Shown: positions 1 through 16,636, counted from the first letter of the stretch. The stretch: 19,703 bases of DNA from a virus (IMGVR_UViG_2778261252_000009:1-19703); one strand, 5' to 3'. Program-made: numbers and translations. Notes: generated by a model from the letters alone, not told the origin.

Positions 1-1053
1 TTACGGGGTAATGCCAACCGCTGCCGCCACTTTGTCGCCACTTGGCAGCGTTGCCAGAGGATTGAAACGGAGCGCCGTTTCCAGATGATCTGGTGCCAGA
101 TGTGCGTAACGCATAGTCATTTTTATATCGTGGTGTCCGAGAATTTTTTGTAAGGCGAGAATGTTTCCACCCGACATCATGAAGTGCGCCGCAAATGTAT
201 GGCGCAGAACGTGTGTGAGTTGACCGCGAGGGAGCACGATAGACGTTTTTTCCATCACGGATAAAAATTGAAAATAGCAGTCTGTAAAGAAATTGAACCC
301 ATCAAGCGCCATGATCTCTTCGTAAAGCTCTTTACTGATAGGGATGCTTCTGTTTTTCTTCCCCTTCGTTCTGACAAAGGTAATTCGGTATTTGGTCACC
401 TGTGAGCGGGTAAGATTTACGGCTTCACGCCAGCGTGCGCCTGTGCTTAAGCATATCTTAACTACCAGTGCCAGAATTGGGTCCTGACGTTTGCAATCAG
501 CCAGCAATTCAACAATCTGCTCATGGGTAAGCCATGCCATCTCTTTTTCTGCGATGGTGAATTTTCGCATGTTCTCCAGTGGGTTCGGATACGACCATTC
601 GCCCAGACGGGATAGTTCGCTAAAAACACTACTTAGATAGCTTTGCTCCAGGTTAATGGTGACCGGGCTTGCTCCTTTCTTCCATTTCTCGCTGAAGTAG
701 ATCTCGCCTGTCAGGCGTTTATCTCGATAGTGGGCAAACATTTTAGAGGTGAGATCGGTTGCAAGAGGATTGCCCAGAGCGTCAACCATCAACAGCAATT
801 TGTCATAGACATGCTGCCCAGCTGTCAGAGATTTACCATGTAGTTTGAACCATAGCTCAACCACGTCTTTCAGTGTTCGACGATCCACTGATTCACCCAG
901 CCAGGGCTTTGCTTCGGTTTCTTCCATCGTGTGGCGCTCAAAAGCCAGAGCTTCGCCTTTGGTGGCGAATTGTTTACGCACCCGACGCCCACTACGTCCG
1001 GCGGGGTAACATTCGCAAAGCCATTTTCCTGTGGTGAGTTTTCGTACTGCCAT
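1..1053 (-). CDS. int: Tyrosine integrase, P2/186 family
   Basis: 350-aa ORF with ATG at 1051-1053. Contains LSTGARWREA, a catalytic Arg box, and a C-terminal HxxR...Y region (LRHTFAAHFM...GH...MTMRYAHL) typical of P2-like integrases. Confidence 0.9.
   Translation of the reverse strand: MAVRKLTTGKWLCECYPAGRSGRRVRKQFATKGEALAFERHTMEETEAKPWLGESVDRRTLKDVVELWFKLHGKSLTAGQHVYDKLLLMVDALGNPLATDLTSKMFAHYRDKRLTGEIYFSEKWKKGASPVTINLEQSYLSSVFSELSRLGEWSYPNPLENMRKFTIAEKEMAWLTHEQIVELLADCKRQDPILALVVKICLSTGARWREAVNLTRSQVTKYRITFVRTKGKKNRSIPISKELYEEIMALDGFNFFTDCYFQFLSVMEKTSIVLPRGQLTHVLRHTFAAHFMMSGGNILALQKILGHHDIKMTMRYAHLAPDHLETALRFNPLATLPSGDKVAAAVGITP
19..40. repeat. Putative attL core (left copy of direct repeat), lying inside the 3' end of int
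   Basis: 21 of 22 positions identical to 16402-16423; flanking bases diverge on both sides. Confidence 0.6.
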
Positions 1054-1078
1054 TAAAAAGCCCTCATGTCAGAGGGCT
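1054..1078 (-). terminator. Putative intrinsic terminator or attenuator hairpin immediately upstream of the int start codon
   Basis: Minus strand reads AGCCCTC-TGACAT-GAGGGCT-TTTTTA-ATG: 7-bp stem, 6-nt loop, T-run. The GAGGG that would serve as the int Shine-Dalgarno lies in the 3' stem arm. Confidence 0.45.
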
Positions 1079-1126
1079 AAATTTAACTGTATGTTTGACC
1101 AGTGGTCAATGTATGTAAATATTAAA

Positions 1127-2896
1127 TCATACGTCAGGGGTAATCCAGTCGACTAAAGCCTCAATACTTTCGAAATCTGCACAGATATCTGAAAGAGGTT
1201 GTGTATCTGCTTTTGTTTTGAAATCAGCCCATACTGATTCATTTTTTTCTGTAAGACCCAAATGGTTTTCTATCGAACCATTTAGCCAAATCCAAATATT
1301 TGCATTTCTCAGTTTTGCGGCTAATGATGACAAAAATTCTCTGGCGCCGGGCTTTTGAGACATAATAGCAAATGCTTCAGCTGCGGTAGTGTTATTACCC
1401 TTTGTAGGCAAACCGGATCCATCGAGAGTGCATTCTCCATTAGCATGCATACTTCTCAAGATTTCTTTTAGTCGTAAAATATCCTCGTCATTATGTTCTA
1501 AGAAGTTGTTCCTTATTGCACCGCGGAACGCAAAATCTAAATCAACAATTGCTTTTGTAGGTATATCCATTGAATTTAGAATTTGCATCGTTTTAGATAT
1601 ACTTTCAACGGACCCTGTTTCAATTAGTGCTATTTGCATCTGACCTAATGTTTTATTTTTAACTTTGTTAAAAATAAATGGGAGCAGAGTAGTCTCTGTT
1701 TTACCTTCTGTTAGTATTACATTGTTAGCAAACAAAACTTTTGAAGACTGTGTTAATGAAAATAAATGGGTTGCTTGTGCTGGTCGTTGTTCGATTACTT
1801 TATTGACTGCTTCTTTTAATGTTAATCTGCAATGAGTGCCACGCTGACTGTTTTTTCTGATTAACACAGTGTCTTTTGCTAAGTCAGAGGTAATCATTTG
1901 AGATGAATGGGTAGAGAAAATTATTTGATATCCATGATGAGATAGTGTTTTTAGAGATTCTCTAATTTGTTCGATAGCAAATGGGTGAAGATATAACTCA
2001 GGTTCATCTATTAACAGTAGAGTAGTTGTTTTAATATCATCACCGTTGGTTATATCAGCTAAATGTCTTATTAGAGCCATCTGAATCGAACGCTGTGTGC
2101 CATGACCATAAGAAGAACAGTCACGAGCAATGCCGGGAAATGAATCTTCATATACTTTCACAGTCCCTGATTTAAATATATCCTTGAAGTCAGGGAGTTC
2201 GAAGTGTAGTTTTAAACTTATCCCAGGGAAGAAATCAGCAACTTTACTACTTATTGAATCATCAATATCATTGAGGTCCGATATTCGTTTATTACCGGTT
2301 GCAGTCATTCTTCTATTAACGGCATTTAAATGGCTTAGTATCCTTTGAGTGTGCTTCTCTTCTATTTTGCAACTCAATTCTGCCAGCAACTTACCTATTG
2401 TAGTTCCTGTTTTTGATTTTGAAGAATCATCCGCTGCATTTTCCATTGCACCTATACGTATTGGGTCTGGAAATAAAGCTTTTATCGCATTCTCAATACC
2501 CGTTGGTGATGTCCTGAATTCGTTATTTTCTGGGTTTTTAATTAATAATCTGACGTCTTTTGCACTTTGAGCACCAACAGGCTGTTGACGCTTAAATATC
2601 AATACCCCATCAATAATGTAGGGTGAAATTCTAGTTCTGTTTTCTTCTGTTAAAGCTGACAAAATATCTTCAGTAATACCCTTAACTGTACCTATAACTT
2701 CTATAGGGTTATCTGGATTAGTATAATCATCAGAGGACAAAAGTTTTTTCTTAAAAAGCCATTCAATAGCATTTAAAATCGTTGACTTACCAGCATTGTT
2801 GTAACCGATTAAAGGCGTGAATGAAGAAAAATTGATATCAATATCTTTGCAAGATCTAAAGTTTTTTATAGAAATCTTTGAAAGATGATGATTCAT
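1127..2896 (-). CDS. OLD-family ATP-dependent nuclease (N-terminal ABC-type ATPase, C-terminal Toprim); candidate anti-phage defense protein
   Basis: 589 aa. Walker A GYNNAGKST near N-terminus, Walker B LLLIDEPELYLHP, H-loop FSTHS. Toprim-like VILTEGKTE and DxD motif AIVDLDFA. Strong RBS GGAGGAG 6 nt upstream of ATG. Visibly AT-rich relative to neighbours. Confidence 0.8.
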   Translation of the reverse strand: MNHHLSKISIKNFRSCKDIDINFSSFTPLIGYNNAGKSTILNAIEWLFKKKLLSSDDYTNPDNPIEVIGTVKGITEDILSALTEENRTRISPYIIDGVLIFKRQQPVGAQSAKDVRLLIKNPENNEFRTSPTGIENAIKALFPDPIRIGAMENAADDSSKSKTGTTIGKLLAELSCKIEEKHTQRILSHLNAVNRRMTATGNKRISDLNDIDDSISSKVADFFPGISLKLHFELPDFKDIFKSGTVKVYEDSFPGIARDCSSYGHGTQRSIQMALIRHLADITNGDDIKTTTLLLIDEPELYLHPFAIEQIRESLKTLSHHGYQIIFSTHSSQMITSDLAKDTVLIRKNSQRGTHCRLTLKEAVNKVIEQRPAQATHLFSLTQSSKVLFANNVILTEGKTETTLLPFIFNKVKNKTLGQMQIALIETGSVESISKTMQILNSMDIPTKAIVDLDFAFRGAIRNNFLEHNDEDILRLKEILRSMHANGECTLDGSGLPTKGNNTTAAEAFAIMSQKPGAREFLSSLAAKLRNANIWIWLNGSIENHLGLTEKNESVWADFKTKADTQPLSDICADFESIEALVDWITPDV

Positions 2897-2939
2897 TTTA
2901 GACTCCTCCAGTAAGTATTTAAAAGTAATGTCTGCAATG

Positions 2940-3878
2940 TTATTGTATTGTTAAGATAATGCTGGCTATAATTTGAATATCCTCAATGGAACACTCAAAA
3001 TCCTTACTCCCACCAGAAACAAGAATTTTGTTCTTAGGTAAGCGAGTTAACTCTTTTAAAGATAACTCATTGTCAATTCCTACTAACCATTTTCCATCTC
3101 TAATTAGGTGAAATTCTTTATCACATATGACATGTTTTTCTCCATTGCTTACAAACATCAAGCTGCTAGTTTCTTGCTTCGGAAGTAGACACCGATCCAT
3201 GGATAAAAAACCTGACTCGACAAGCACGCCATTGACCAAATTGAACTTATTTAAAATTACAGTGTTTTCTTCTTGTGAACTATTTGGTGTTTCGATTCCT
3301 GTAACTAGCCAGGCGAGATCCGCTTTGGTTTCTAATGCGCATTTAATCACCCAATCCGCAGGGAAAGAATCTCGCATGTATCGTGTGGCTAATGTGCTTT
3401 TTGAAATACCAAGGTGGTCGGCTAAGGCTTGGCGGGTTTTAAACCCGTAAGCATTAACAATCCTCTCTATCGTGGCTTTTCCTCCGTTAGTAAGCTCAAT
3501 GTGATTCTCAATGCGGCGCTTAAAGGATGATTGATGAGCGTTGCTGTTAAACCCCTCATGTGGGACTGTTTCATCATGTTGTTCCACATAAGGGGGGAAA
3601 CTTTCTTCTGCATTGTTAGAACCAAAGGCCAGCCATTCTAGGGATGCGCCAGTTTCCATTGAACATATAACAACCCAATCAGCAGGGAAGGTATCGCGTG
3701 CATATCTATTAGCCATTGTGCTTTGTGAAATACCAAGATGCTTACAGAAGGCTTGGCGTGATTTGAAACCATAGGCCTTGAGTATCCTCTCAATGACTTT
3801 TTGCCCTCCACGATTCTGCATGACCATAGCTTTCAGACTATCTTCAATATGGCGAAATGTGATTTTTTGAGTTGACAT
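2940..3878 (-). CDS. cI: CI-like prophage repressor with tandemly duplicated N-terminal HTH domain
   Basis: 312 aa. Two copies of a ~62-aa motif (residues 25-86 and 133-194, IERI..AYGFK.RQA...HLGIS.ST.A.RY.RD.FPADWV..C..ET.A.L.WL..G), about 39 of 62 identical by hand alignment. Sits divergent from apl-cII in the 186 cI position. Confidence 0.7.
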   Translation of the reverse strand: MSTQKITFRHIEDSLKAMVMQNRGGQKVIERILKAYGFKSRQAFCKHLGISQSTMANRYARDTFPADWVVICSMETGASLEWLAFGSNNAEESFPPYVEQHDETVPHEGFNSNAHQSSFKRRIENHIELTNGGKATIERIVNAYGFKTRQALADHLGISKSTLATRYMRDSFPADWVIKCALETKADLAWLVTGIETPNSSQEENTVILNKFNLVNGVLVESGFLSMDRCLLPKQETSSLMFVSNGEKHVICDKEFHLIRDGKWLVGIDNELSLKELTRLPKNKILVSGGSKDFECSIEDIQIIASIILTIQ

Positions 3879-3965
3879 ATTCTTTATGTGAACCTATTCT
3901 CCGTTTTGTGATGTTTTGTCACGATTAATACCGGCTCACCACAAGCCAATAGGAGATGTTGCATC

Positions 3966-4187
3966 ATGACCCCTAACATTTCAATAACTCTGAATACGCC
4001 ACACGTCACAATTGAGCGTTATAGCGAACTTACTGGTCTTTCTATCGACACCATCAACGATATGCTGGCAGATGGTCGTATCCCTCGCCATCGCCTTCGG
4101 AAAGACAAGAAAAGAGAAAAGGTAATGATCAACCTTGCTGCTCTTACCGTTGATGCACTTACTGATTGCAATGTTGTATTCAACTAG
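3966..4187 (+). CDS. apl: Apl/Cox-like small HTH excisionase and regulator
   Basis: 73-aa ORF, first gene rightward of the switch region, RBS AGGAGA upstream; position equivalent to 186 apl. Confidence 0.55.
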
Positions 4188-4219
4188 TTCCATTTTGGGA
4201 TGTATCAGGAGTGTCGACT

Positions 4220-4729
4220 ATGTTTGATTACCAAGTTTCCAAACATCCACATTTTGATGAAGCCTGTCGTGCATTTGCATTGCGCCACAACTTGGTGCAA
4301 CTGGCAGAACGTGCAGGTATGAATGTGCAGATTCTGCGGAACAAGCTGAATCCAGCTCAACCTCATTTATTAACCGCACCAGAAATCTGGCTGCTTACCG
4401 ATCTGACTGAAGATTCAACGTTGGTAGATGGTTTTCTGGCACAGATTCACTGCCTGCCATGCGTACCAATTAATGAGGTGGCAAAAGAGAAACTGCCACA
4501 TTACGTCATGAGTGCAACCGCAGAGATCGGGCGTGTTGCTGCAGGTGCGGTATCTGGCGATGTAAAAACCAGTGCAGGTCGTCGTGATGCTATCAGCAGC
4601 ATTAACTCTGTAACACGACTGATGGCGTTGGCTGCTGTTTCATTGCAGGCCCGTTTACAGGCTAACCCTGCGATGGCGAGTGCAGTTGATACCGTGACTG
4701 GCCTCGGTGCTTCATTCGGTTTGCTGTGA
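4220..4729 (+). CDS. cII: CII-like transcriptional activator, phage 186 type
   Basis: 169 aa from ATG at 4220 with RBS AGGAGTG. N-terminus [19 protein letters not shown] matches my recollection of 186 CII, which is also 169 aa. Confidence 0.8.
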
Positions 4730-4736
4730 GGTGCTT

Positions 4737-5033
4737 ATGCTGACGAAAGAACCATCATTTGCATCGCTGCTGGTAAAACAAAGCCCGGCAATGCACTACG
4801 GTCACGGCTGGATCACAGGTGAGGATGGAAAACGCTGGCATCCATGTCATTCACAAGATGAATTGCTGTCTGAATTGACCACGAGGAAACGGAGAAAGTC
4901 CAAATGTATGCGGCAGAAAGTGAAGTGGTTTATCAGTTTCGTTACAGAGGGGAGAGTTATTCAGTACCTGAAGATGATTTGCTCTGTTGCTATCCGTCAT
5001 TGTCGGGCGATGGCAGTTACTTTTTCGCGTTAA
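4737..5033 (+). CDS. Hypothetical early protein, translationally coupled to cII
   Basis: ATG at 4737 with GAGG 5 nt upstream, 8 nt after the cII stop. Overlaps the next ORF by ~130 nt in another frame, so the true 3' end is uncertain. Confidence 0.4.
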   Translation: MLTKEPSFASLLVKQSPAMHYGHGWITGEDGKRWHPCHSQDELLSELTTRKRRKSKCMRQKVKWFISFVTEGRVIQYLKMICSVAIRHCRAMAVTFSR

Positions 5034-5128
5034 AGGATGGGACGTTTTTACGGGGAGAGCAGGTTAAAGAGACGATACGAAAAAATGTATCTCCTCTTGA
5101 GCGTTACCGTAAGAACAAAGAACGATAG
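4904..5128 (+). CDS. Hypothetical early protein
   Basis: 74-aa ORF with good RBS GGAGAAAG 5 nt upstream of ATG. Confidence 0.5.
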   Translation: MYAAESEVVYQFRYRGESYSVPEDDLLCCYPSLSGDGSYFFALKDGTFLRGEQVKETIRKNVSPLERYRKNKER

Positions 5129-5150
5129 CTGCGTTTGGGGGATATGAAGT

Positions 5151-5492
5151 ATGGCAATTAATGGCGCTGCAGCAACTGTTCCATTAAGCCCCGGTGAACG
5201 CCTGAATGGACTTAATCACATTGCGGAGTTAAGGGCGAAAGTTTTTGGCCTGAATATTGAGTCAGAGCTTGAGCGGTTTATTAAAGATATGCGTGATCCA
5301 CGGGATATCAATAATGAACAAAATAAACGGGCACTGGCTGCCATATTCTTTATGGCAAAAATTCCAGCTGAACGTCATAGCATCAGCATTAATGAGCTGA
5401 CCACTGACGAAAAGCGGGAGCTGATTAAAGCAATGAATCATTTTCGTGCAGTGGTGAGCTTATTTCCCAGACGGCTAACCATGCCGAATTAA
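5151..5492 (+). CDS. Hypothetical early-region protein
   Basis: 113-aa ORF, RBS GGGGGA upstream, same strand as the early operon. Confidence 0.5.
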   Translation: MAINGAAATVPLSPGERLNGLNHIAELRAKVFGLNIESELERFIKDMRDPRDINNEQNKRALAAIFFMAKIPAERHSISINELTTDEKRELIKAMNHFRAVVSLFPRRLTMPN

Positions 5493-5559
5493 CCAACTAA
5501 TGAAATTAATGGCGTAAACCCGCCGGGCATCCCTTTATCTAAATTCAGGAGAATTGATT

Positions 5560-5793
5560 ATGCGTAATATTGAAACCCTCACGACTAAAACCGGACCGGA
5601 TGACGCAGGGCTTAATATTTTACTGACAGAGGCTCGTCTGGAAGAACGCCGGGCAAGGGCTGAAGCAATGGCAGCTCGCCTTGATAGCCTGGCGTGTCAT
5701 ATCTCATCCCGTCAGCTAAACCACGTGGAAGCGGCAGAACTGCTGCGTGTGACTGCTGAAGCAATCCAGAACGAAGCGCAGGAGATCCACTAA
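5560..5793 (+). CDS. Hypothetical early-region protein
   Basis: ATG at 5560 with AGGAGA 7 nt upstream; its stop TAA overlaps the next ATG (TAATG). Confidence 0.5.
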   Translation: MRNIETLTTKTGPDDAGLNILLTEARLEERRARAEAMAARLDSLACHISSRQLNHVEAAELLRVTAEAIQNEAQEIH

Positions 5794-6020
5794 TGGCTGA
5801 TGCAATGGATCTCGTACAGCAGCGCGTTGAAGAAGAACGCCAGCGCCATATCCGTGCTGCCCGTGCCAAAACGCCGGGCGTGTCCCGCGTGCTTTGCGTT
5901 GAGTGTGAAGCGCCAATTCCGCCAGCACGCCGCCGTGCCATTCCGGGTGTGCAGCTTTGCATTACCTGTCAGGAAATCGCAGAGCTGAAAAGCAAACATT
6001 ACAACGGGGGTGCTGTATGA
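5793..6020 (+). CDS. TraR/DksA-type C4 zinc-finger protein
   Basis: 75 aa with CVECEAPIP...CITCQ (CxxC-N17-CxxC); P2-like phages carry such a gene upstream of A. Confidence 0.7.
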   Translation: MADAMDLVQQRVEEERQRHIRAARAKTPGVSRVLCVECEAPIPPARRRAIPGVQLCITCQEIAELKSKHYNGGAV

Positions 6021-6874
6021 GCACCATCCTGAAATGGGCGGGAAATAAAACCGCCGTAATGTCCGAACTGAAAAAACATCTTCCTGCTGGTCCGCGACTA
6101 GTTGAACCTTTCGCGGGTTCCTGTGCTGTGATGATGGAGACGGATTATCCCTGCTATCTGGTTGCGGATATTAATCCTGATTTAATCAACCTCTATAAAA
6201 AGGTTGCCGCTGATTGTGAATCGTTTATATCTCGCGCCAAAGTTTTATTTGAGATCGCAAACAGGGAGGTGGCTTATTACAACATAAGGCAGGAGTTTAA
6301 TTACTCAACTGAAATTACTGATTTCATGAAAGCGGTATATTTCCTGTATCTCAATCGTCACGGTTACCGTGGGTTATGTCGCTATAACAAGAGCGGGCAT
6401 TTCAACATTCCCTACGGTAATTATAAAAATCCGTATTTCCCTGAAAAAGAAATTCGCGCTTTTGCAGAAAAAGCCCAGCGAGCAACGTTTATCTGCGCCA
6501 GCTTTGATGAAACGCTGGCGATGTTGAAGGCGGGGGATGTGGTGTATTGCGATCCGCCTTATGACGGTACGTTTTCCGGCTATCACGCTGACGGCTTTAC
6601 TGAAGATGACCAGTATCACCTGGCATCCGTTCTTGAACATCGGTCATCAGAAGGACATCCGGTCATTGTTTCTAACAGTGACACATCCCTGATCCGTTCG
6701 CTGTATCGCAATTTTACTCACCACTATATCAAGGTAAAACGCAGCATCGGCGCAGCAGCTGGTGAGAGTAAATCAGCAACAGAAATCATTGCTGTTTCCG
6801 GGCCGCGCTGCTGGGTGGGATTTGATTATTCGCGTGGCGTGGATAGTTCTGCCGTGTACGGAGTACGTGCATGA
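6017..6874 (+). CDS. dam: DNA adenine methyltransferase, Dam family, with no adjacent restriction gene
   Basis: 285 aa. N-terminal LKWAGNK and FAGS motifs (AdoMet binding), catalytic DPPY ([10 protein letters not shown]), [15 protein letters not shown] similar to E. coli Dam. Start overlaps upstream stop (ATGA) and stop overlaps A start (ATGA). Confidence 0.9.
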
Positions 6875-9285
6875 GCCATGCCGATATGAGCAACTGCTGC
6901 GGCTTTAACGAGGCTGCCGCATCGTTCTCATGGAACAGCCCGAAAAAGGCCATTAACCCTTATCTGGACCCGGCGGAAGTTGCGCCGGTTTCTGCGCTTT
7001 CAAACCTGATCACTCTGTACGCTGCCGATAACGAGCAGGAACAACTGCGCCGCGAGGCACTGAGTGATCAGGTCTGGGAGCGTTATTTCTTTAATGAATC
7101 CCGTGATCCTGTCCAACGCGAAATAGAGCAGGATAAGCTCATTAGCCGGGCAAAGTTGGCGCATGAGCAGCAGCGTTTTAACCCGGACATGGTCATTCTG
7201 GCAGACGTCAGCGCCCAGCCCTCCCATATCAGCAAGCCGCTGATGCAACGTATTGAATACTTCAGCAGCCTGGGCAGGCCAAAGGCTTATTCCCGCTATT
7301 TACGTGAGACGATTAAGCCATGTCTGGAACGACTGGAGCATGTACGCGACAGCCAGCTATCTGCATCTTTTCGTTTTATGGCAAGCCATGTAGGGCTGGA
7401 CGGCCTGCTGATTCTGCCTGAAATGAGTCAGGATCAGGTGAAACGCCTGTCTACCCTTGTCGCTGCGCATATGAGCATGTGCCTTGATGCAGCTTGTGGT
7501 GATTTGTATGCCACCGATGACGTTAAGCCAGAAGAAATCCGCAAGACATGGGAAAAGGTGGCAGCGGAAACCCTGCGTCTGGATGTCATCCCGCCTGCGT
7601 TTGAGCAACTCCGTCGGAAAAGAAACCGCCGTAAACCCGTGCCCTATGAACTCATTCCGGGTTCGCTGGCGCGTATGTTGTGCGCCGACTGGTGGTACCG
7701 GAAATTATGGAAAATGCGTTGCGAATGGCGGGAAGAGCAGTTGCGTGCTGTCTGCCTGGTCAGCAAAAAAGCATCTCCCTATGTCAGCTATGAAGCCGTG
7801 ATGCATAAACGTGAGCAGCGCCGCAAGTCACTGGAGTTTTTCCGTTCTCATGAACTGGTGAACGAAGAGGGCGACACGCTGGATATGGAAGACGTGGTAA
7901 ACGCCAGCAGCAGCAACCCGGCGCACCGCCGCAATGAGATGATGGCCTGTGTTAAAGGTCTGGAGCTTATCGCGGAAATGCGCGGTGACTGCGCCGTTTT
8001 CTACACCATTACCTGTCCGTCACGTTTCCATTCCACGCTCAATAACGGCAGACCAAACCCAACCTGGACAAATGCGACGGTAAGACAAAGCAGCGATTAT
8101 CTGGTCGGCATGTTTGCTGCATTTCGTAAGGCGATGCACAAAGCCGGGTTGCGCTGGTATGGCGTGCGGGTGGCTGAGCCGCATCATGACGGTACAGTTC
8201 ACTGGCACCTGTTGTGTTTCATGCGCAAAAAAGACCGCCGCGCCATTACTGCATTGTTGCGTAAGTTTGCCATCCGTGAAGACCGCGAGGAACTGGGTAA
8301 TAACACTGGTCCACGCTTTAAATCTGAGCTGATAAACCCGCGCAAAGGAACGCCGACAAGCTACATCGCGAAATACATCAGTAAGAACATTGACGGGCGT
8401 GGTCTGGCTGGCGAGATCAGCAAGGAAACGGGTAAATCCCTGCGTGATAACGCTGAATACGTTAATGCCTGGGCGTCTCTGCATCGTGTTCAGCAATTCC
8501 GCTTCTTTGGTATTCCGGGACGTCAGGCTTACCGTGAACTTCGCTTGCTGGCTGGTCAGGCGGCAAGGCAACAGGGTGACAAAAAAGCAGGTGCGCCGGT
8601 ACTGGATAACCCGCGTCTTGATGCCATTCTGGCTGCTGCTGATGCTGGTTGTTTTGCCACCTACATCATGAAGCAGGGCGGCGTACTGGTTCCCCGCAAA
8701 TATCACCTCATCAGAACCGCTTATGAAATCAACGAAGAGCCAACCGCCTATGGCGATCACGGTATTCGTATTTATGGCATCTGGTCACCCATTGCAGAGG
8801 GCAAGATCTGCACTCATGCAGTGAAGTGGAAAATGGTTCGTAAGGCCGTTGACGTTCAGGAGGCGGCAGCCGACCAGGGCGCTTGCGCCCCTTGGACTCG
8901 TGGCAATAACTGTCCCCTTGCTGAAAATTTGAACCAACAAGGGAAAGACAAATCAGCTGATGGGGATACCAGAACGGATATCACCCGCATGGATGACAAG
9001 GAGTTGCACGATTACCTGCACAGAATGAGCAAAAAAGAGCGCCGGGAACTGGCAGAAAGATTACGCCTGGTTAAACCGAAACGGCGTAAAGACTACAAAC
9101 AGCGAATTACAGAGTATCAGCGTCAGCAGCTCGTCTATGAGCTGAAGTCCAGAGGATTTGATGGTAGCGAGAAAGAGGTCGATTTACTCCTTCGCGGCGG
9201 CAGTATTCCGTCAGGAGCAGGCCTGCGTATCTTCTATCGGAACCAGCGTTTGCAGGAAGATGATAAGTGGCGGGATCTGTATTAA
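6871..9285 (+). CDS. A: Rolling-circle replication initiation endonuclease, P2 gene A family
   Basis: 804 aa. HUH motif HWH at codons 444-446 (8200-8208) and paired catalytic tyrosines YIAKY at codons 498-502 (8362-8376), as in the phiX174 A / P2 A superfamily. Confidence 0.85.
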
Positions 9286-9377
9286 TTACGCGGGTTAACA
9301 ATTCGTGCTCTTAATAATACCAGGCATATCAGGCTGATGAACGTAAAAAAACGTTTTACATCAGTAAGATTATTATA

Positions 9378-9397
9378 TACTGTAAATATAAACAGTG
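9378..9397 (+). promoter_or_regulatory. LexA (SOS) box upstream of the tum/dinI-like module
   Basis: TACTGTAAATATAAACAGTG matches the CTGT-N8-ACAG consensus exactly (CTGT 9380-9383, ACAG 9392-9395), about 40 bp upstream of the ORF starting at 9438. Confidence 0.65.
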
Positions 9398-9437
9398 GTT
9401 ATGTATACAGTATTGCTTTGGTGTCATAGGAGGAAAG

Positions 9438-9626
9438 ATGCAGGACTATTTTTTGGAGTCTTTGAAGCTCCAGCGCATTGATTTTTTTCTTAAGCTTGTA
9501 GCGGCTAGTGAGTGTAGTGATGAAGAGAAGGGGCTGGCTCTGCAGTGGGTTTCTGAACTGACAGATGAACTCATGGCAAAAATCAGAACCCACGAATACA
9601 ACCGCTCAATGGATGTCATCAGCTGA
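9438..9626 (+). CDS. Small protein downstream of LexA box; possible Tum-like antirepressor component
   Basis: 62-aa ORF with RBS AGGAGG; function inferred from position only. Confidence 0.4.
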   Translation: MQDYFLESLKLQRIDFFLKLVAASECSDEEKGLALQWVSELTDELMAKIRTHEYNRSMDVIS

Positions 9627-9636
9627 GGTGACTTTT

Positions 9637-9870
9637 ATGCGCATTGAAATAATGATCGATAAAGAGCAGAAGATTAGCCAGTCTACACTGGACGCCCTTG
9701 AATCCGAGCTTTACCGCAATCTGCGCCCCCTGTATCCCAAAACGGTAATTCGTATCCGCAAAGGTAGCTCTAACGGTGTGGAACTGACCGGACTGCAACT
9801 GGACGAAGAAAGAAAACAAGTGATGAAAATTATGCAGAAGGTGTGGGAAGACGACAGCTGGCTGCATTAA
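9637..9870 (+). CDS. DinI-family protein
   Basis: 77 aa starting MRIEIMIDKEQ...LDALESELYRNLRPLYP...KIMQKVWEDDSW, resembling E. coli DinI (MRIEVTIAK...). RBS GAGG 8 nt upstream. Confidence 0.7.
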   Translation: MRIEIMIDKEQKISQSTLDALESELYRNLRPLYPKTVIRIRKGSSNGVELTGLQLDEERKQVMKIMQKVWEDDSWLH

Positions 9871-10073
9871 GAAACGTTGCTGGCGTCTGAACTTGCTTCT
9901 GGCGTCAGCAAGGTTGAACAACGAGCTGTGCGAGGCGTTAGCTCTGTGGTGCATGTCTATGCCGCATGAGATCGCATGATCGTTTGAGGATTGTTTTTGC
10001 TAAGGCCTGCCAGAACTGGCGGGCTTTTGCGTAGATCATGCAGGTGCATGAAAACCACTACATAAAGCGGGCA

Positions 10074-10099
10074 GGCGTGGCGGGGATACGAGCGCGCAC
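10074..10099. other. cos-like remnant (possible degenerate cohesive-end site)
   Basis: GGCGTGGCGGGGA matches the first 13 nt of the 186/P2 19-nt cohesive end as I recall it (GGCG[T/A]GGCGGGGAAAGCA[T/C]); the remaining 6 nt differ. Lies in a GC-rich non-coding stretch between the dinI-like gene and the cargo gene. Confidence 0.4.
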
Positions 10100-10218
10100 T
10101 TAAGGATAAATTGAAGTTGATTTAATTTTTCGACATGGATAATCTTAACTACGTATGATTATTGATAAAAAATAAACATAAAAAATTGTAGCGGATCTTA
10201 AAACTTATTAGGATTAGT

Positions 10219-11280
10219 ATGCTTAAAACAAATAAGGTATTTATTGACACACAAACGTACGTAAAGGCTGGTCTTCATTTTGAGGGGGTAGCATTTAAAG
10301 CTTTCCATGAATTATGTGCGAAAGGTGATTTAGTCTTAATTACAACTACAGTTGTAGAGAGAGAAGTAAAAGGTAAAATAGAGGAATCAATAAAGGATGC
10401 TCTGCAGGCTATAAACACAGTACAAAGAAAAGCTAGGCTTTTGAATAGTATTGATAATGGACCGCTCCATGGTTTTTTTCAGCAATTTAACGAACATGAA
10501 ATTCACGAAGCAGCACAAAAAGTTTTTGATGATTTTTTGAAAGGATGTCACGCCAAATTAGCTACAATAGAAGTGATAGATCTTAATGAGGTTTTAGATA
10601 AATACTTTGGCAAAGAACCACCATTTGGGCAAAATAAGAAAAAAAGTGAGTTTCCTGATGCAATCACTTTAGCTGCGGTAGAGCGATTTGTTAATGATGA
10701 AGATGTGTATATCATTTCTGAGGATAGTGACTTAAAAAATTATTGTGATGGTAAAAACAATCTTCATCAAATTGATTCACTTGATAAGTTTCTAGGTGAA
10801 TACAATACGCATACAAACGAATTAAGTAATAAATTGATGCAGTTTATCGAAAGCAAACGTGAAGACATAAGAGCGGACGTAATTGCCCAACTCAATGATG
10901 CCGATGGATATAACGTTTCAACTTGGGAAGACGCTGAATTGGATTCATTTGAAGTCGTCAATATTGATGACTTTGAACCATCAATAATTAAGATTAGCAA
11001 TAATTATTGTCTAGCGACCTTCTCTGTTTCTGTAGATTTTGAAGTTACTGTTTCTGGTCCAGACTTTAATAATGGGTATTGGGATAGCGAAGATAAAGTA
11101 ATGATTCCAATGGAGACAACCACACGAACTGAAGTTCAAGAGATTAGTTTCGATGTTGAAATTGAAGTTATGTATGAAATCGAGGATGGTGAATTAACAG
11201 ATATCGCATTTGATGTGAATATTGATAAGTTATCCCGAGGGATTGAGTTCTCTATTGAAGAAAATAATTTTGAATATTAA
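10219..11280 (+). CDS. Cargo protein with PIN-like N-terminal domain and acidic beta-rich C-terminal domain; candidate anti-phage or abortive-infection effector
   Basis: 353 aa. N-terminus KVFIDTQTY (Asp in first strand), later TLAAVERFVNDEDVYIISEDSDL resembling distal PIN acidic motifs. C-terminal half very D/E rich. Visibly AT-rich, flanked by an AT-rich upstream region and a hairpin terminator. Confidence 0.55.
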   Translation: MLKTNKVFIDTQTYVKAGLHFEGVAFKAFHELCAKGDLVLITTTVVEREVKGKIEESIKDALQAINTVQRKARLLNSIDNGPLHGFFQQFNEHEIHEAAQKVFDDFLKGCHAKLATIEVIDLNEVLDKYFGKEPPFGQNKKKSEFPDAITLAAVERFVNDEDVYIISEDSDLKNYCDGKNNLHQIDSLDKFLGEYNTHTNELSNKLMQFIESKREDIRADVIAQLNDADGYNVSTWEDAELDSFEVVNIDDFEPSIIKISNNYCLATFSVSVDFEVTVSGPDFNNGYWDSEDKVMIPMETTTRTEVQEISFDVEIEVMYEIEDGELTDIAFDVNIDKLSRGIEFSIEENNFEY

Positions 11281-11289
11281 TTCGTTCAT

Positions 11290-11320
11290 AACGGCATCAT
11301 TGTGATGCCGTTGGGTTTTA
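11290..11320 (+). terminator. Hairpin terminator between the convergent cargo gene and Q
   Basis: AACGGCATCA-TTG-TGATGCCGTT (10-bp perfect stem, 3-nt loop) followed by GGGTTTTA. Confidence 0.6.
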
Positions 11321-12343
11321 TAATGTATATATTTCAAAATTTATAATTTCATGACCAAGCCATCTGTTTATTTCCATGAATCTTTTTTGAAGTGGTAATA
11401 GTTCATTTCTTACGAAGACGCAGCTCGCCTTCTCCACATCACCAAAACCCCCAACATTATTCGGCAAAATTCCCATCATCTGAGGCGGTACGCGGTGTGC
11501 CGCCATCATGTCATCACGGCTGACGTTCTTGATGTTCAGAAATTCATCCTTCGCCGCGACTTCTGACAACGGGATGATTTGAAGCCCGTCCTTTTTGCCG
11601 TTAGGCGAGTACATAAACAGGTTGCGGAAGTTGCCAGGGCCTTTGGCGCTTTTCATCGCATTGCGGAGGTTGTTCACATCCTCCTGGTTCTGCGCGGCAT
11701 CGGTCATGTACATGATGAAGCCTGCATGGCTGCCGTTAATGTAATACTTCCGGCGGAACAGCGTGGCGGACTCGTTGAGCAGGGCTGACGGAATGGCAGA
11801 AAGATAACCTGGTAGGCCGTAGATCTCCTGGTTGATGTCAGGTTCCATCAGATGAAAAATGCTGCCTTTCGTGAACTGATACGGCTGGGTTGTCATACCG
11901 TATTGCACAAACCAGTAGGTATCCAGATCTAACCCGCGTCGGGTGTATTTTGCCAGAGCAGGCTCAAGGGCGATAACTTCACCGAAGCGGTTCGTGCGTT
12001 TCTCCAGGTAGGCGTTACCAAATACCAGATAGTCCTGCACAAAACGTGAAAAAGCCTGCTGGCTGAGCAGCGGGTGAGGGATGTAGGTACTGGTCAGAAT
12101 GTTGCATTTCACCGCAATTGGTGAGCTGTGATGCACGGCGGCGCGGAAGGTTCGTGCCAGTCCGTCAAAGCTGACGGGCGGCTCATACCAGCGATCCATC
12201 TGTACGCATTCCACATAGTCCAGCAGTTCACGGCGGTCCAGAACAGGAACGGGATCGCCAAAGCTGAATGCTTCGGCTGAAGTTTGGCTTTTATGCTTGA
12301 GCTGATTCGTCGCCGCAGCGCGGTTTTTCTTACTCTTTCCCAT
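11318..12343 (-). CDS. Q: Portal protein, P2 gpQ family
   Basis: About 341 aa (P2 Q is ~344 aa by my recollection); ATG at 12341-12343 overlaps the stop of the upstream terminase fragment; gene order P then Q as in P2. Confidence 0.85.
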   Translation of the reverse strand: MGKSKKNRAAATNQLKHKSQTSAEAFSFGDPVPVLDRRELLDYVECVQMDRWYEPPVSFDGLARTFRAAVHHSSPIAVKCNILTSTYIPHPLLSQQAFSRFVQDYLVFGNAYLEKRTNRFGEVIALEPALAKYTRRGLDLDTYWFVQYGMTTQPYQFTKGSIFHLMEPDINQEIYGLPGYLSAIPSALLNESATLFRRKYYINGSHAGFIMYMTDAAQNQEDVNNLRNAMKSAKGPGNFRNLFMYSPNGKKDGLQIIPLSEVAAKDEFLNIKNVSRDDMMAAHRVPPQMMGILPNNVGGFGDVEKASCVFVRNELLPLQKRFMEINRWLGHEIINFEIYTL

Positions 12344-13323
12344 CAAAAAATCTCCACAATATTGCTGGTATTGGCGGACTCGCCCTGCAGCGGTTCATTA
12401 AACAGTGCGTGCATTGTTGCCCAGGCCAGATCGGCGTGGCTGGCTTCTTCGCTGCGGCTGGCTTCATAGGTCGGGCGGTTGCCACTGGCGGTGGTGGCGC
12501 GACGGATTGCCATAAATGACTGCGCTATGTCGGTGTGTCCGGCGTCAAACTCCAGACGGCGGTGGCTGATAATGTCGTAGGCCTTGAGTACCAGGGCGTT
12601 TTTGACGTTGGGGTTGTAGACAAACTCCCGGACGGCAGGAAAAAACACTTTCACGTTCTCGTAAACCCCGTGACCAACGCCGGTTGAGTCGATGCCGATA
12701 TAGGTCACGTTGTACTGTTCGGTCAGTTTTTTGATGGCGTCAGCCTGGGCGCGAAAGTCCATCCCGCGCCACTGGTGACGCTCAAGAATGCGGAACTTGC
12801 CGCCCGGCACGGCTGGCGGTGCCACCACCACGCATCCGGCACTGTCGCCGTTCTGCGTACCTTTCGCCGGGTCATAACCGATCCACACTTCGCGCCAGCC
12901 AAACGGGCGCAGTGCCAGTGCATGAAAGTCGGTCCAGACTTCCCAGCTGTCCACCATGCACGCCTGCAGCTCGCTGAGCGGGAACACGGACGCGAGATCG
13001 TCCACGAACTCGCACATCAGCAGGTTCTGGTATTCGTCCGGGCTGTACTCCATGCGCAACTGGTCAAGGTCGAACAGGTTGCAGCCGCCGCGCACCGCAT
13101 CTTCCACGGTGACTATCTGGCGGTATTGCCCGTCTGCGCACAGCAGGCCGGGGGCCAGATTGCTGTGGGACAGGTCGATGTCCACCTTATCGGCTTTGTT
13201 GCGCCCACGGTTGAACAGCGCACCGGACCAGAACGGATACGGCAGCAGTAACTCGAACCAGCAACGCGTTGTCCTGGCTGGCTGGTGCACCACTGGCACT
13301 GCTGCGACGCGGGCTTGCTTCAT
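12343..13323 (-). pseudogene. P: Terminase large subunit (P2 gpP family), N-terminally truncated; only distal ATPase region plus nuclease domain retained
   Basis: 326-aa ORF with no Walker A; contains the RNase-H-like nuclease motif VWIGYDPAKG...D. P2 P is ~590 aa by my recollection. The ORF's 5' end overlaps the tape-measure fragment on the opposite strand. Confidence 0.75.
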
Positions 13324-14513
13324 CGGGCAATGCTGCGGGTTTACTTACTGCGCCGTTGTCGTCTTTGCGCCGCACGGCATCACTGACGGGAAATGTCCTG
13401 AAAACTGTAGCAGGTGCGCCGGTTGCACTTTTGCGGTCTGGATTATCCGGTTTACGTGCTGTTGCTGTGATGTTTATGAATCCTCTGGCGGTACTGCGCG
13501 GTGGACTGACCGCCGCAGGCACGGTGTTGCGAGTACTGGCATCTGGTCCACTGGCGATGCTGCGCGTTGCCCTGTATGCCATATCTGGTCTGTTAGGTGC
13601 TCTGCTCAGTCCGATAGGTCTTGTGGTTACTGCACTGGCAGGCGTGGCGCTGGTTGTCTGGAAATACTGGCAACCCATCACCGCATTTCTCGATGGCGTG
13701 GTGGAGGGATTCAAAGCGGCGGCAGGTCCCATCAGTGCTGCATTTGAACCACTTAAGCCTGTGTTTCAGTGGATTGGCGACAAAGTACAGGCGCTGTGGG
13801 GCTGGTTTACTGATCTGCTGACGCCCGTTAAGTCGACCTCTGCCGAACTGCAGAGCGCAGCGGCAATGGGGCGACGATTCGGGGAGGCACTGGCGGAAGG
13901 GCTGAATATGGTTATGCATCCGCTGGACTCCCTGAAATCTGGCGTTTCCTGGTTGCTGGATAAACTCGGCATTGTCAGTAAAGAGGCTGCAAAGGCGAAA
14001 CTGCCGGAAAGCGTGACGCGTCAGCAACCTGCGACGGTGAATGCAGACGGTAAAGTGATGATGCCATCGGGTGGTTTTCCATCATGGGGATATGGCTTTG
14101 CGGGGATGTATGACAGCGGCGGCTATATCCCGCGCGGGCAGTTTGGCATCGTCGGTGAAAACGGGCCGGAAATTGTTAACGGCCCGGCAAACGTGACCAG
14201 CCGGAGAAATACAGCTGCACTGGCTGCCGTTGTTGCCGGAATGATGGGCGTTGCTGCCGCGCCTGCAGAGCTTCCACCGTTGCATCCTTTGGCACTTCCC
14301 GCGAAAGGCGGCGAAGCGATGGTGAGTCGTGCAGCCACTGTGCCGCCCGTTCAACGGATTGAGGCACCGACGCAGATCATCATTCAGACGCAGCCAGGAC
14401 AAAGTGCGCAGGATATTGCGTGGGAGGTGGCCCGCCAGCTTGATGAACGTGAACGCAGGCTGAAGGCAAAAGCCAGGAGTAACTACAGCGATCAGGGGGG
14501 ATACGACGCATGA
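13269..14513 (+). pseudogene. T: Tail tape measure protein (P2 gpT family), C-terminal fragment
   Basis: 414-aa ORF, Ala/Leu/Gly-rich with GENGPEIV near the C-terminus, followed by U and D as in P2 (T is ~815 aa in P2 by my recollection). The 5' boundary of genuine T sequence is uncertain. Confidence 0.7.
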
Positions 14514-14995
14514 TGATGGTGCTGGGATTGTACGTGTTTATGCTGCGCACCGTGCCGTATCAGGAACTGCAGTATCAACGCAGCTGGCGACATGCGGCTA
14601 ACAGCCGGGTAAATCGTCGTCCGTCCACGCAGTTTCTGGGACCGGACAACGACATGCTGACGCTTTCCGGTGTTCTTATGCCGGAGATAACAGGCGGCAG
14701 GCTGTCGTTGCTGGCACTTGAGCAGATGGCAGAACAGGGGAAAGCATGGCCCCTGATTGAAGGCAGCGGCACGATTTACGGCATGTATGTGATTGAGGGA
14801 CTGAATCAGACTAAAACGGAGTTTTTCCGCGACGGTATGCCGCGCCGGATTGAGTTCACCCTGTCGCTCAAACGAGTGGATGAATCCCTGTCCGATATGT
14901 TCGGTGATCTCAGTGCGCAACTGAATAATCTGCAGGAAACGGCAACATCTGCTTTAAGCGATATCAGTAAAACGGTGGGAGGGCTGCTGTCGTGA
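14510..14995 (+). CDS. U: Tail protein, P2 gpU family
   Basis: 161 aa; start overlaps T stop (ATGA); synteny T-U-D. Confidence 0.8.
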   Translation: MMMVLGLYVFMLRTVPYQELQYQRSWRHAANSRVNRRPSTQFLGPDNDMLTLSGVLMPEITGGRLSLLALEQMAEQGKAWPLIEGSGTIYGMYVIEGLNQTKTEFFRDGMPRRIEFTLSLKRVDESLSDMFGDLSAQLNNLQETATSALSDISKTVGGLLS

Positions 14996-16092
14996 ATTTC
15001 AGCTCTGAGCTGCTTAACAAGGGCAACAAAACTCCCGCATTCAGCATCAGTATTGAGGGCAGGGATATCACTACTGTCCTGGATAATCGCCTGATGAGTC
15101 TGACGTTGACGGACAATAGGGGCTTTGAAGCGGACCAGCTTGATCTGGAGCTGGACGACGCCGACGGAAAAATCGTGCTGCCGCGCCGTGGTGCGGTCAT
15201 TACGCTGGCGCTGGGCTGGAAGGGGCAGCCGCTTTTCCCGAAAGGGGCATTCACGGTGGACGAGATTGAACACACTGGCGCACCGGACCGCCTGACTATC
15301 CGGGCGCGAAGTGCTGATTTTCGGGAAACGCTGAATACCCGCCGTGAAAAATCGTGGCATAAGACCACCGTCGGGGAAGTGGTGAAGGAAATAGCTGCGC
15401 GTCACAAACTGAAGATGGCACTGGGTAAAGACCTGTCGGATAAACCCGTGGATCATATAGACCAGACTAATGAGAGTGACGGCAGTTTTCTGATGCGGCT
15501 GGCGCGACAGTACGGTGCCATCGCGTCGGTGAAAAATGGCAATCTGTTATTCATCCGGCAGGGGCAGGGCAAAAGCGCCACTGGTAAACCACTGCCGGTG
15601 ATCACTATCACACGGAAGGACGGCGACAGTCACCGCTTTACCCTGGCAGATCGCGGAGCTTACACGGGCGTCATTGCCAGCTGGTTGCATACCCGCGAAC
15701 CCGCGAAGAAAGAAAGCACCACGGTGAAGCGTAAGCGCAGGACTAAGAAGCAGAAGAAAGAGCCGGAAGCGAAGCAGGGCGATTACCTGGTGGGTACGGA
15801 TGAAAACGTGCTGGTACTTAATCGCACTTATGCCAACCGGAGCAACGCCGAACGGGCAGCGAAAATGCAGTGGGAACGCCTGCAACGCGGCGTTGCATCA
15901 TTCTCGCTACAACTGGCGGAAGGGCGGGCAGATCTCTACACAGAAATGCCTGTGAAGGTCAGTGGCTTTAAACAGCCGATAGATGATGCGGAATGGACCA
16001 TTACGACTCTGACGCATACCGTCAGCCCGGATAACGGTTTTACGACCAGTCTGGAGCTTGAAGTGAGGATTGATGATTTCGAAATGGAATGA
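14992..16092 (+). CDS. D: Tail protein, P2 gpD family
   Basis: 366 aa, GTG start overlapping U stop (GTGA), RBS GGGAGGG; last gene of the tail operon before ogr. Confidence 0.8.
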   Translation: MNFSSELLNKGNKTPAFSISIEGRDITTVLDNRLMSLTLTDNRGFEADQLDLELDDADGKIVLPRRGAVITLALGWKGQPLFPKGAFTVDEIEHTGAPDRLTIRARSADFRETLNTRREKSWHKTTVGEVVKEIAARHKLKMALGKDLSDKPVDHIDQTNESDGSFLMRLARQYGAIASVKNGNLLFIRQGQGKSATGKPLPVITITRKDGDSHRFTLADRGAYTGVIASWLHTREPAKKESTTVKRKRRTKKQKKEPEAKQGDYLVGTDENVLVLNRTYANRSNAERAAKMQWERLQRGVASFSLQLAEGRADLYTEMPVKVSGFKQPIDDAEWTITTLTHTVSPDNGFTTSLELEVRIDDFEME

Positions 16093-16182
16093 TTCTTCGC
16101 AATGGAGAACTTTTAAGTTTGCAAAATGGAATAATGCGGTATCATTATTGTGAATTTAGCAAAAATGGGGAGAACTCGAAAA

Positions 16183-16401
16183 ATGATGATTTGCCCACTG
16201 TGTGGAAGTGCCGCCCATACTCGCAGCAGTTTTCAGGTATCTTCATTGACCAAAGAGCGTTACAACCAGTGCCAGAACATTAACTGCAGCCATACTTTTG
16301 TTACCCATGAAACTTTTGTTCGTTCGATTGCAACGCCAAAAGAGTCAAATCCGGTTCAGCCGCATCCAATGAAATCAGGACAGGTGGCGCTCTCTCTTTG
16401 A
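16183..16401 (+). CDS. ogr: Ogr/Delta-type zinc-finger late-gene activator
   Basis: 72 aa from ATG 16183 with CPLCGSAAH...CQNINCSHTF, matching the P2 Ogr pattern CPLC...H...C..NC and its 72-aa length. Confidence 0.8.
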   Translation: MMICPLCGSAAHTRSSFQVSSLTKERYNQCQNINCSHTFVTHETFVRSIATPKESNPVQPHPMKSGQVALSL

Positions 16402-16423
16402 CGCTGCCGCCATTTTGTCGCCA
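16402..16423. repeat. Putative attR core (right copy of direct repeat), immediately after the ogr stop
   Basis: CGCTGCCGCCATTTTGTCGCCA, 21 of 22 identical to 19-40. Confidence 0.6.
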
Positions 16424-16481
16424 TCGTTAAAAAACAGTGTTTCTAACATCATGATTTTAAACAGCTTAAATTTCAGGCAAC

Positions 16482-16524
16482 AAAAAACCCATCAACCTTG
16501 AACCGAAATGGCGGGGTTGATGGG
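16482..16524 (-). terminator. Intrinsic terminator of ybjL
   Basis: CCCATCAACC (16488-16497) pairs with GGTTGATGGG (16515-16524) around a 17-nt loop; on the minus strand the hairpin is followed by TTTTTT. Confidence 0.7.
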
Positions 16525-16636
16525 CTCCACAAAATGGGGACATCAAAGAAAAGCAGTGGCACTAATTAAGACTGATGCCCTGCGGAAAAGTTCTGCGGTT
16601 GTGCAAAAAAATTTCATTTTCAGGGCAACTTCAGTT

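Follow-up and report, generated by a model that had tools for sequence, protein, structure and literature searches.

The DNA analyzed here (IMGVR_UViG_2778261252_000009:1-19703, a stretch of 19,703 bp hereafter referred to as the window) very probably carries an ordinary and recent defective prophage of the Fels-2/186-like branch of the P2 family (Peduoviridae), integrated at the small RNA (sRNA) gene rybB of Escherichia coli and disabled by a single deletion. Both the site and the kind of element were already known, P2-like prophages being on record at rybB in E. coli W, B and Crooks (PMC3032704); what is noteworthy is that the deletion breakpoints are not random, and that cassettes appear to have been exchanged after the deletion. 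The window matched the chromosome of E. coli VE-V10-F with 100% identity, except for an insertion sequence (IS2) present in the dam gene of VE-V10-F. Its phage-like part sits between rcdA and ybjL, an interval that in K-12 contains only the rybB sRNA gene.

The loss of structural genes, already recorded in the initial annotation of this DNA, was traced to one junction, with no second rearrangement. Homology to gene P of Klebsiella phage KP12 extends as far as position 13239, and that to gene T begins at 13238, the junction (13238-13239) being a TA common to P (P+897) and T (T+1313). With respect to KP12, 16,998 bp are missing (P+898 to T+1312), comprising the N-terminal half of P, then O, N, M, L, X, the lysis genes, R and S, as well as V through G, FI, FII, E and the first 1312 nt of T. 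Lost in this way were both terminase functions and the capsid, as well as the genes for the fibres, baseplate, tube and sheath; none of the four late promoters was left, the P/O promoter region being part of the missing stretch. Three structural genes were kept complete, namely the portal gene Q (11318-12343, minus strand; Pfam Phage_portal), 94% identical to that of KP12, and genes U (14510-14995, plus strand; Pfam GpU) and D (14992-16092, plus strand; Pfam GPD), in addition to the C-terminal 298 codons of the terminase large subunit P (12343-13239, minus strand; Pfam Terminase_6C and the tail of 6N) and the 3' part of the tape-measure gene T (13240-14513, plus strand). The T fragment, U and D (PHROG 5690/28) were 97-99% identical to KP12. 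Because the late promoters were deleted, Q, the P and T fragments, U and D are orphaned: Q lacks its late promoter, and the T fragment, U and D are promoterless. No complete late operon (P-Q, O-S, V-G, F-D) with Ogr-dependent promoters was found, and the element cannot make particles. The gene for the late activator Ogr (16183-16401, plus strand; Pfam Ogr_Delta) encodes a protein 100% identical to that of KP12, and a promoter-like site was detected at 16118-16145 by promoter scan.

Genomes of the P2 family are organised in two contiguous blocks, one of early genes (int to tum) and one of late genes (P to D). Since the late block is contiguous, a single deletion within it does not touch int, the switch, A, tum, cos or ogr, and because one deletion explains their retention, the presence of the early genes is uninformative about selection. 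The deletion, of ~17 kb, was probably an illegitimate event at a TA microhomology, joining P at about codon 291 to the last third of T; the rest of the element is probably unchanged because the deletion is recent, rather than because it was selected.

In order to evaluate how widespread this arrangement is, complete E. coli genomes were searched for the exact P|T junction, which was found in 2 of 5426 genomes, VE-V10-F and VE-V11-M. Both strains come from Hanoi and from one study; in each of them the element is inserted at rybB, the flanks correspond, and rcdA is of one rare allele. Only 6 substitutions separated them over the 8.3 kb that run from Q through the junction and ogr into the chromosomal flank, which points to a recent event. 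The left part of the element was different: in VE-V11-M, a 189-amino-acid (aa) CI and a 63-aa gene replace Old and the 312-aa CI, the hotspot cargo is a TIGR02391 gene rather than the PIN gene of the window, and 70 substitutions in 6.1 kb (1.2%) distinguish the early regions. Since the junction is shared while immunity, cargo and early region differ, the cassettes were swapped after the deletion, and the left half of one of the two remnants was replaced by recombination once the element had become defective. Two remnants with one junction and with differing hotspots and immunity are direct evidence of cassette swapping by defective elements, and the exchange of defence cassettes in such elements had been raised as an open question (PMC13586616). 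Within the VE-V10-F genome, a single locus matched a query spanning Q to ogr, with no second Fels-2-like prophage detectable, and therefore no close helper is co-resident.

Other rybB remnants with different late-region deletions were also abundant: in at least 43 genomes, Q lies no more than ~3 kb from T, U or D, and the variety of these deletions shows ongoing erosion. Breakpoints were mapped onto KP12 for 20 other rybB remnants and three metagenome contigs, drawn from similarity-ranked match lists, so that the recurrence described below is solid but does not represent a population frequency. In strains unrelated to one another and in metagenomes, endpoints fell on the very same nucleotides. 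Position P+897 (...ACGGA[TA]AGCAC; 13239 in the window) was an endpoint, at the same nucleotide, in eight different junctions. The Q-proximal side of P was kept when the partner was T+1313 (window), FII+394 (ECCWS199), V+477 (TW14425), U+178 (EC261), or E+135, D+400 and D+793 (metagenome contigs), while the other side was kept in N137, where the partner was Q+592. The partner in the window, T+1313, recurred as well, joined to W+103 in Survcare253 and, as a left end, to T+1665 in H5. Six more endpoints were reused 2-3 times (E'+59, V+477, K+160, O+77/78, T+1665 and the centre of the P/O Ogr box), and reused endpoints often lay on opposite sides in different strains. Overall, 39 endpoint pairs coincided within 2 nt where 0.5 would be expected, a count that was not approached in any of 20,000 simulations. 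Microhomology of 2-5 nt was present at nearly all junctions and ended at the same base, TA being joined to TA and TG to TG.

Some remnants showed further features of this kind. Fragments between hot sites (E' to T+1313; FII+394 to E'+63; E+135 to T+1323), found in H5, ECCWS199 and one metagenome contig, were 99.3-100% identical to KP12 versus 94-97% in their flanks, suggesting that fragments bounded by hot sites may be of separate origin. A remnant form typified by strain 1223 carries Q, an intact P and O+78 joined to T+1874, followed by U, D and ogr; it was present in ~27 complete genomes from dogs, cattle, pigs, humans and rivers, and is either an old, vertically inherited allele or one that has spread widely. 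N137 has three deletions, the last of which runs from the baseplate gene J into artJ and removes ogr, attR, rybB, ybjL and ~12 host genes; the ends are therefore not preserved in every remnant. In addition, dinI is missing from this strain.

Several possible causes of the recurrent endpoints were considered. No common 4-6-mer at a fixed offset (Type IIS/III-like motif) was found within ±60 nt of seven hot sites, hot site T5 being left out of the scan. The DNA at the P, T1 and V sites folded no better than shuffled sequences, and E' alone sits at a hairpin (z = -1.85 for folding against shuffles). An IS2-linked deletion at the P site was rejected, as a chimeric query made of the left side of P and the IS2 end had no contiguous match, in either orientation, in the 5426 genomes; IS2 was the one IS type covered. 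The crossover repeats of the phage invertase (TTGGTTTGGGAGAA) are unlike the TA/TG hot sites, and the nick context of the replication origin (CTTGG|ACTCG) is unlike the break sites, and both invertase action and nicking by the A protein were discarded. Chi-protected ends, EcoKI, EcoRII, the gyrase consensus and integron secondary sites, compared by eye only, gave no consistent fit. When one genome per species was scanned for junctions at the P site, only intact P genes with point differences were recovered, and 23 E. coli records were broken within 150 nt of this site. The IS2 copy in dam of VE-V10-F is inserted with a 5-bp ATTAT duplication (equivalent window site ~6144-6148), and its target, GACGG[ATTAT]CCC, loosely resembles the P hot site (AACGGATAAGC).

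The ends of the element were defined by aligning the empty K-12 site to both junctions. The att core thus obtained (AACAAAAAACCCAT) is 14 bp long, or ~26 bp if imperfect matches are tolerated, and overlaps the rybB terminator. Its attR copy lies at 16479-16492, the latter being the position where KP12 homology stops, and constitutes the 3' end of rybB (16479-16557, minus strand; Rfam RybB, 105 bits, full length). The attL copy was found in VE-V10-F, 87 bp to the left of window position 1 and thus outside the window, giving an excisable element of 16,566 bp. The genomes of relatives measure 33.4-33.7 kb; the element is almost exactly half of this length, and a dimer (33.1 kb) would be about one headful. 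Integration occurs in the terminator of a sigma-E sRNA gene, the 3' end of which is rebuilt at attR, while the attL side retains just the terminal 14 bp of rybB. No tRNA gene was found in a scan of the window.

A 22-nt repeat (CGCTGCCGCCAYTTTGTCGCCA) with copies at 19-40 and 16402-16423 had initially been taken as att, placing the ends of the element at 19 and 16423. These repeats were ruled out as crossover sites, as both copies are inside phage DNA and match the arm-site consensus: the consensus of the 186 Int arm sites, YAYCGCCAYTY, is matched twice in tandem within the repeat, at 10/11 positions each time. They are, by prediction, the Int arm-type binding repeats of the P' arm (19-40, plus strand), inside the 3' end of int as in the P' arm of P2, and of the P arm (16402-16423, plus strand), just after ogr as in the P arm of P2, that is, putative cis sites for recombination. 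A tyrosine integrase gene is located beside attP, in which arm-type sites flank a core shared with attB.

Every gene named in the initial annotation as intact (int, apl, the cI/cII switch, A, ogr and the SOS module) is an uninterrupted open reading frame (ORF), and the retained genes are full length and 94-100% identical to those of complete phage records. This includes int and A, in which frameshifts or nonsense mutations had been a particular concern, and whose motifs are intact. The window starts at the stop codon of int (1-1053, minus strand; Pfam Int_N and Phage_integrase), which encodes a 350-aa tyrosine integrase 100% identical to that of KP12; its catalytic set R..K..HxxR..H..Y was aligned to P2 and 186 Int. 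The initiator A (6871-9285, plus strand; 804 aa; Pfam Phage_GPA, E=2e-127) carries the HUH motif and the two tyrosines of YIAKY. Inside its gene, near 8860-8910, there is an ori-like GCGCC hairpin with CAATAACTGT, homologous to the annotated P2 and 186 nick regions, as in a rolling-circle initiator of the HUH type with its origin inside the gene.

The switch follows the gene order annotated for 186, with cI divergent from apl-cII-fil and a tum-like module under LexA control. The CI repressor (2940-3878, minus strand; 312 aa) has two tandem helix-turn-helix (HTH) domains ahead of the usual C-terminal domain (Pfam Phage_CI_repr twice and Phage_CI_C), and a repeat of 72% nucleotide identity is found within the gene (3328-3470 and 3652-3794). 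The possibility that this architecture reflects damage was rejected, since Klebsiella phage 4LV2017, a complete phage of 33.5 kb, has it too (58% identity, 95% coverage); about 50 phage records share it. A PADLOC search of CI gave no match. A pR-like promoter (3872-3900, plus strand; TTGACA-17-TATTCT) upstream of apl would drive the lytic operon, and the next genes found were that of an Apl/Cox-like excisionase-repressor of 73 aa (3966-4187, plus strand; PHROG 575, E=1e-31) that is 100% identical in KP12 and 813R9, cII (4220-4729, plus strand; Pfam Phage_CP76) and fil (4737-5033, plus strand; Pfam Phage_186_Fil). These are followed by Pfam matches to DUF5347, DUF2732, a TraR/DksA zinc finger and a Dam methylase (5151-6874, plus strand), dam being intact in the window and split by IS2 in VE-V10-F. 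The SOS module (9380-9870, plus strand) comprises a perfect LexA box at 9380-9395 (CTGTAAATATAAACAG; CTGT-N8-ACAG), located 43 bp upstream of a 62-aa ORF (9438-9626), and a DinI-like ORF (9637-9870). The two ORFs correspond to PHROG 698 and PHROG 189/Pfam DinI, and occupy the position of the p95-tum operon of 186; the 62-aa protein may act as the antirepressor (the role of Tum).

A predicted cos (10047-10099, plus strand) lies between A and Q, with a 19-nt cohesive-end sequence at 10074-10092 and conserved flanks. The 19-mer (GGCGTGGCGGGGATACGAG) matches P2 at 14/19 positions and 186 at 15/19; the left flank (AAGYGGGCR) and the right flank (YGCGCGC) can both be aligned with the cohesive ends annotated in P2 and 186. 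Both the 19-mer and the 45-nt left flank were identical in 13 relatives (Fels-2, the isolated Yersinia phage vB_YpM_MLG42, KP12, 813R9 and nine E. coli or metagenome relatives). The doubt expressed initially, that only a degenerate remnant of cos was left (13 of 19 nt matching), does not hold, since all 19 positions agree with Fels-2 and the 12 further relatives; degeneration was rejected on this basis, and the site is apparently the lineage's own cos rather than a decayed P2 one. A single G>A substitution at 10098 was found in its right flank, where the window and VE-V10-F read CGCGCAC (10093-10099) versus YGCGCGC in P2, 186 and 13/13 relatives; WWCOL-315 has this PIN cassette too, and its equivalent position is a G, as in the consensus. 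Because their cos ends differ, P2 and 186 would be poorly matched as helpers, and a helper of the Fels-2 lineage would probably be needed.

Two cargo genes were found in the window. The first encodes an OLD-family ATPase/TOPRIM nuclease (1127-2896, minus strand; Pfam AAA_15 and OLD-like_TOPRIM) with a full-length PADLOC match to Old (E=9e-235; 779 bits over residues 3-585) and 37% identity to P2 Old over 585 aa. A single gene combining an N-terminal ABC-type ATPase with a C-terminal TOPRIM domain, homologous to P2 Old, corresponds to class 1 OLD, and this gene is, judging from its domains, defence cargo of the int-cI interval, described as a minor P2 defence hotspot (PMC13586616). The second (10219-11280, plus strand; Pfam PIN_12, E=2e-25) had no PADLOC or PHROG match. 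Its location in the A-Q interval beside cos, the main P2 defence hotspot (PMC9122126), makes it a candidate defence gene by position. Of the two defence genes initially proposed, Old was thus substantiated by homology, and the PIN_12 protein keeps its putative role from its location. The slot between cos and Q was filled by different genes in every relative compared, including a retron in GF31, one of the rybB remnants sampled. In this lineage the variable cassette extends from 7-9 nt past the cos 19-mer to ~100 nt inside the 3' end of Q, so that cargo lies between cos and Q, while P2 tin and old are on the A side of cos; some relatives have a second variable gene between dinI and cos.

Taken as a defective prophage, the element most likely maintains CI immunity and expresses Old and the PIN protein as lysogenic-conversion or defence genes. 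The parts for excision, SOS derepression, rolling-circle replication and cos cleavage are present and look intact at the sequence level. After SOS induction, derepression via Tum would probably be followed by excision via Int and Apl and by replication via A. Packaging could in principle be carried out by a heteroimmune helper of the same cos lineage, most plausibly as a dimer, and would then be a by-product of structure and not an evolved strategy. Some observations weigh against so simple an account. Expression, excision, replication and any packaging were deduced from the genes and sites present, and the substitution at 10098, in an otherwise invariant cos flank, could already disable packaging. 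Moreover, the exchange of immunity and cargo modules in VE-V11-M after the deletion indicates that the element is not evolutionarily inert, and the endpoints are strongly non-random, so that simple erosion is an incomplete account of how the deletion arose.

The initial annotation had proposed instead that the element was decaying toward a satellite, in which selection would have preserved excision, replication, trans-activation and the ability to be packaged with the aid of a P2-like helper residing in the same cell. All the cis and trans parts that this calls for are indeed intact, the 16,566-bp element is about half of its 33.4-33.7 kb relatives so that a dimer fills a head, and the two immunity and cargo sets found with one junction indicate exchange of DNA between the remnant and the phage pool. 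In P4, mutation of sid leads to the packaging of dimers and trimers into heads of P2 size. Nevertheless, this origin is very improbable, as the single deletion accounts for the retained genes without selection and the ORFs are of the P2/186 family or hotspot cargo, with no analogue of sid, psu, delta, epsilon, cpm or a redirecting terS. Among ORFs of at least 60 aa annotated in the matching genome, no Pfam or PHROG match to P4-like core markers (psu-delta-sid, alpha primase-helicase, epsilon/alpA) was obtained, an Ogr/Delta-family protein being all that is shared, which places the element outside the P4-like group, and no capsid-redirecting or helper-manipulating gene was identified among the window ORFs with the same databases, so that it does not correspond to a satellite in the general sense either. 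In addition, the element still contains 5 kb of dead structural DNA (Q, U and D with halves of P and T), the junction is confined to two genomes with the same locus and flanks, the VE-V10-F genome has no related helper, and deterioration is already visible in the IS2 insertion in dam of VE-V10-F and in the point change in the cos flank. Other rybB remnants lose attR or parts of Q and P, and no conserved satellite architecture was observed. The claim of decay toward a satellite is therefore not supported. The companion claim, that erosion was not random, was borne out by the endpoints, although for another reason than the one given.

A less remote alternative, albeit still an unlikely one, is a domesticated immunity and defence island, in which the host gains from CI, Old, PIN and Dam, deletions removing virion and lysis genes are favoured, and the early region is held by purifying selection at the host level. 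In agreement with this, late deletions that keep the early region, cargo and ogr recur in many lineages (the strain 1223 type among them), cargo and immunity were replaced rather than lost in VE-V11-M, and defective P2-like elements with intact defence genes have been reported (PMC13586616). However, the similarity-ranked sample is biased toward remnants that keep the parts of the window, N137 has lost dinI, attR and flanking host genes, the event is too recent for a selection test, and such an island would not need int, A or cos. The single-deletion defective prophage remains the better description. As to how the deletion arose, we favour on balance a site-preferring break-and-join process with P+897 as its main site over generic illegitimate recombination, candidates being arrest of A-driven rolling-circle replication with template switching, a nuclease or topoisomerase hotspot, or IS-linked excision. 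The use of P+897 in eight junctions and of seven further sites 2-3 times each, the excess of coincident pairs (39 versus 0.5) and the microhomologies ending at the same base (TA-TA, TG-TG) argue for such a process, while the absence of a fixed-offset motif, of unusual structure at P, T1 and V and of IS2 at the P site, together with the dissimilarity of the invertase and A nick sites to the hot sites, argues against it; secondary deletions from one ancestral junction may also supply part of the recurrence. A broader reading joins both aspects: loss of the virion module through this process, with P+897 dominant and about seven secondary sites, would repeatedly yield half-genomes that keep lysogeny, replication, cos and defence cassettes, still exchange with the phage pool and, a dimer being equal to one headful, maybe travel now and then in helper capsids. 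We consider this combination improbable as a whole, more so than the defence island. The usual model of prophage decay is one of random deletions with selection acting afterwards, and a component directed by sequence or process would alter the way in which domestication is inferred.

Comparison with known systems placed the element closest to the Fels-2/186-type phages, with which it shares the order int-cI / apl-cII-fil ... A, tum/dinI, cos, Q-P ... T-U-D-ogr, the LexA-controlled tum/dinI and the Int arm sites flanking attP. Similarity was highest to Fels-2 (identical cos 19-mer; A, Q and DinI 90-100% identical), followed by 186 (cII 69% and Int 54% identical), while amino-acid identity to P2 proper was only 31-64%. 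Unlike these phages, the element is devoid of ~17 kb of late genes, from half of P through two-thirds of T, and has a two-HTH CI with Old between int and cI; its att is at rybB, in contrast to ileY in 186. The rybB prophages of E. coli W, B (the carrier of retron Ec86) and Crooks share its site and family (PMC3032704), but have other cargo and another deletion.

With satellite P4, the element would have in common an integrase and a replication system of its own, a cos for a P2-family terminase and an Ogr/Delta-type activator, all by sequence, as well as a defence hotspot adjacent to cos (PMC9122126). It differs from P4 in size (16.6 kb versus 11.6 kb), in the absence of sid, psu, delta, epsilon and the alpha primase, in carrying dead structural genes and in deriving by a single deletion from a would-be helper; the P2/P4 cos ends differ from its own at 5/19 positions. 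As in the defective P2-like elements described previously (PMC13586616), apparently functional defence cargo is predicted in the A-Q and integrase-primase hotspots, and as in the ogr-D' remnant of K-12 (PMC3032704), D and ogr are kept at the right end. In contrast to both, the element is far less decayed, with the early region, cos and both att sites intact, and its comparison to VE-V11-M demonstrates an exchange of both cassettes at a time when it was already defective.

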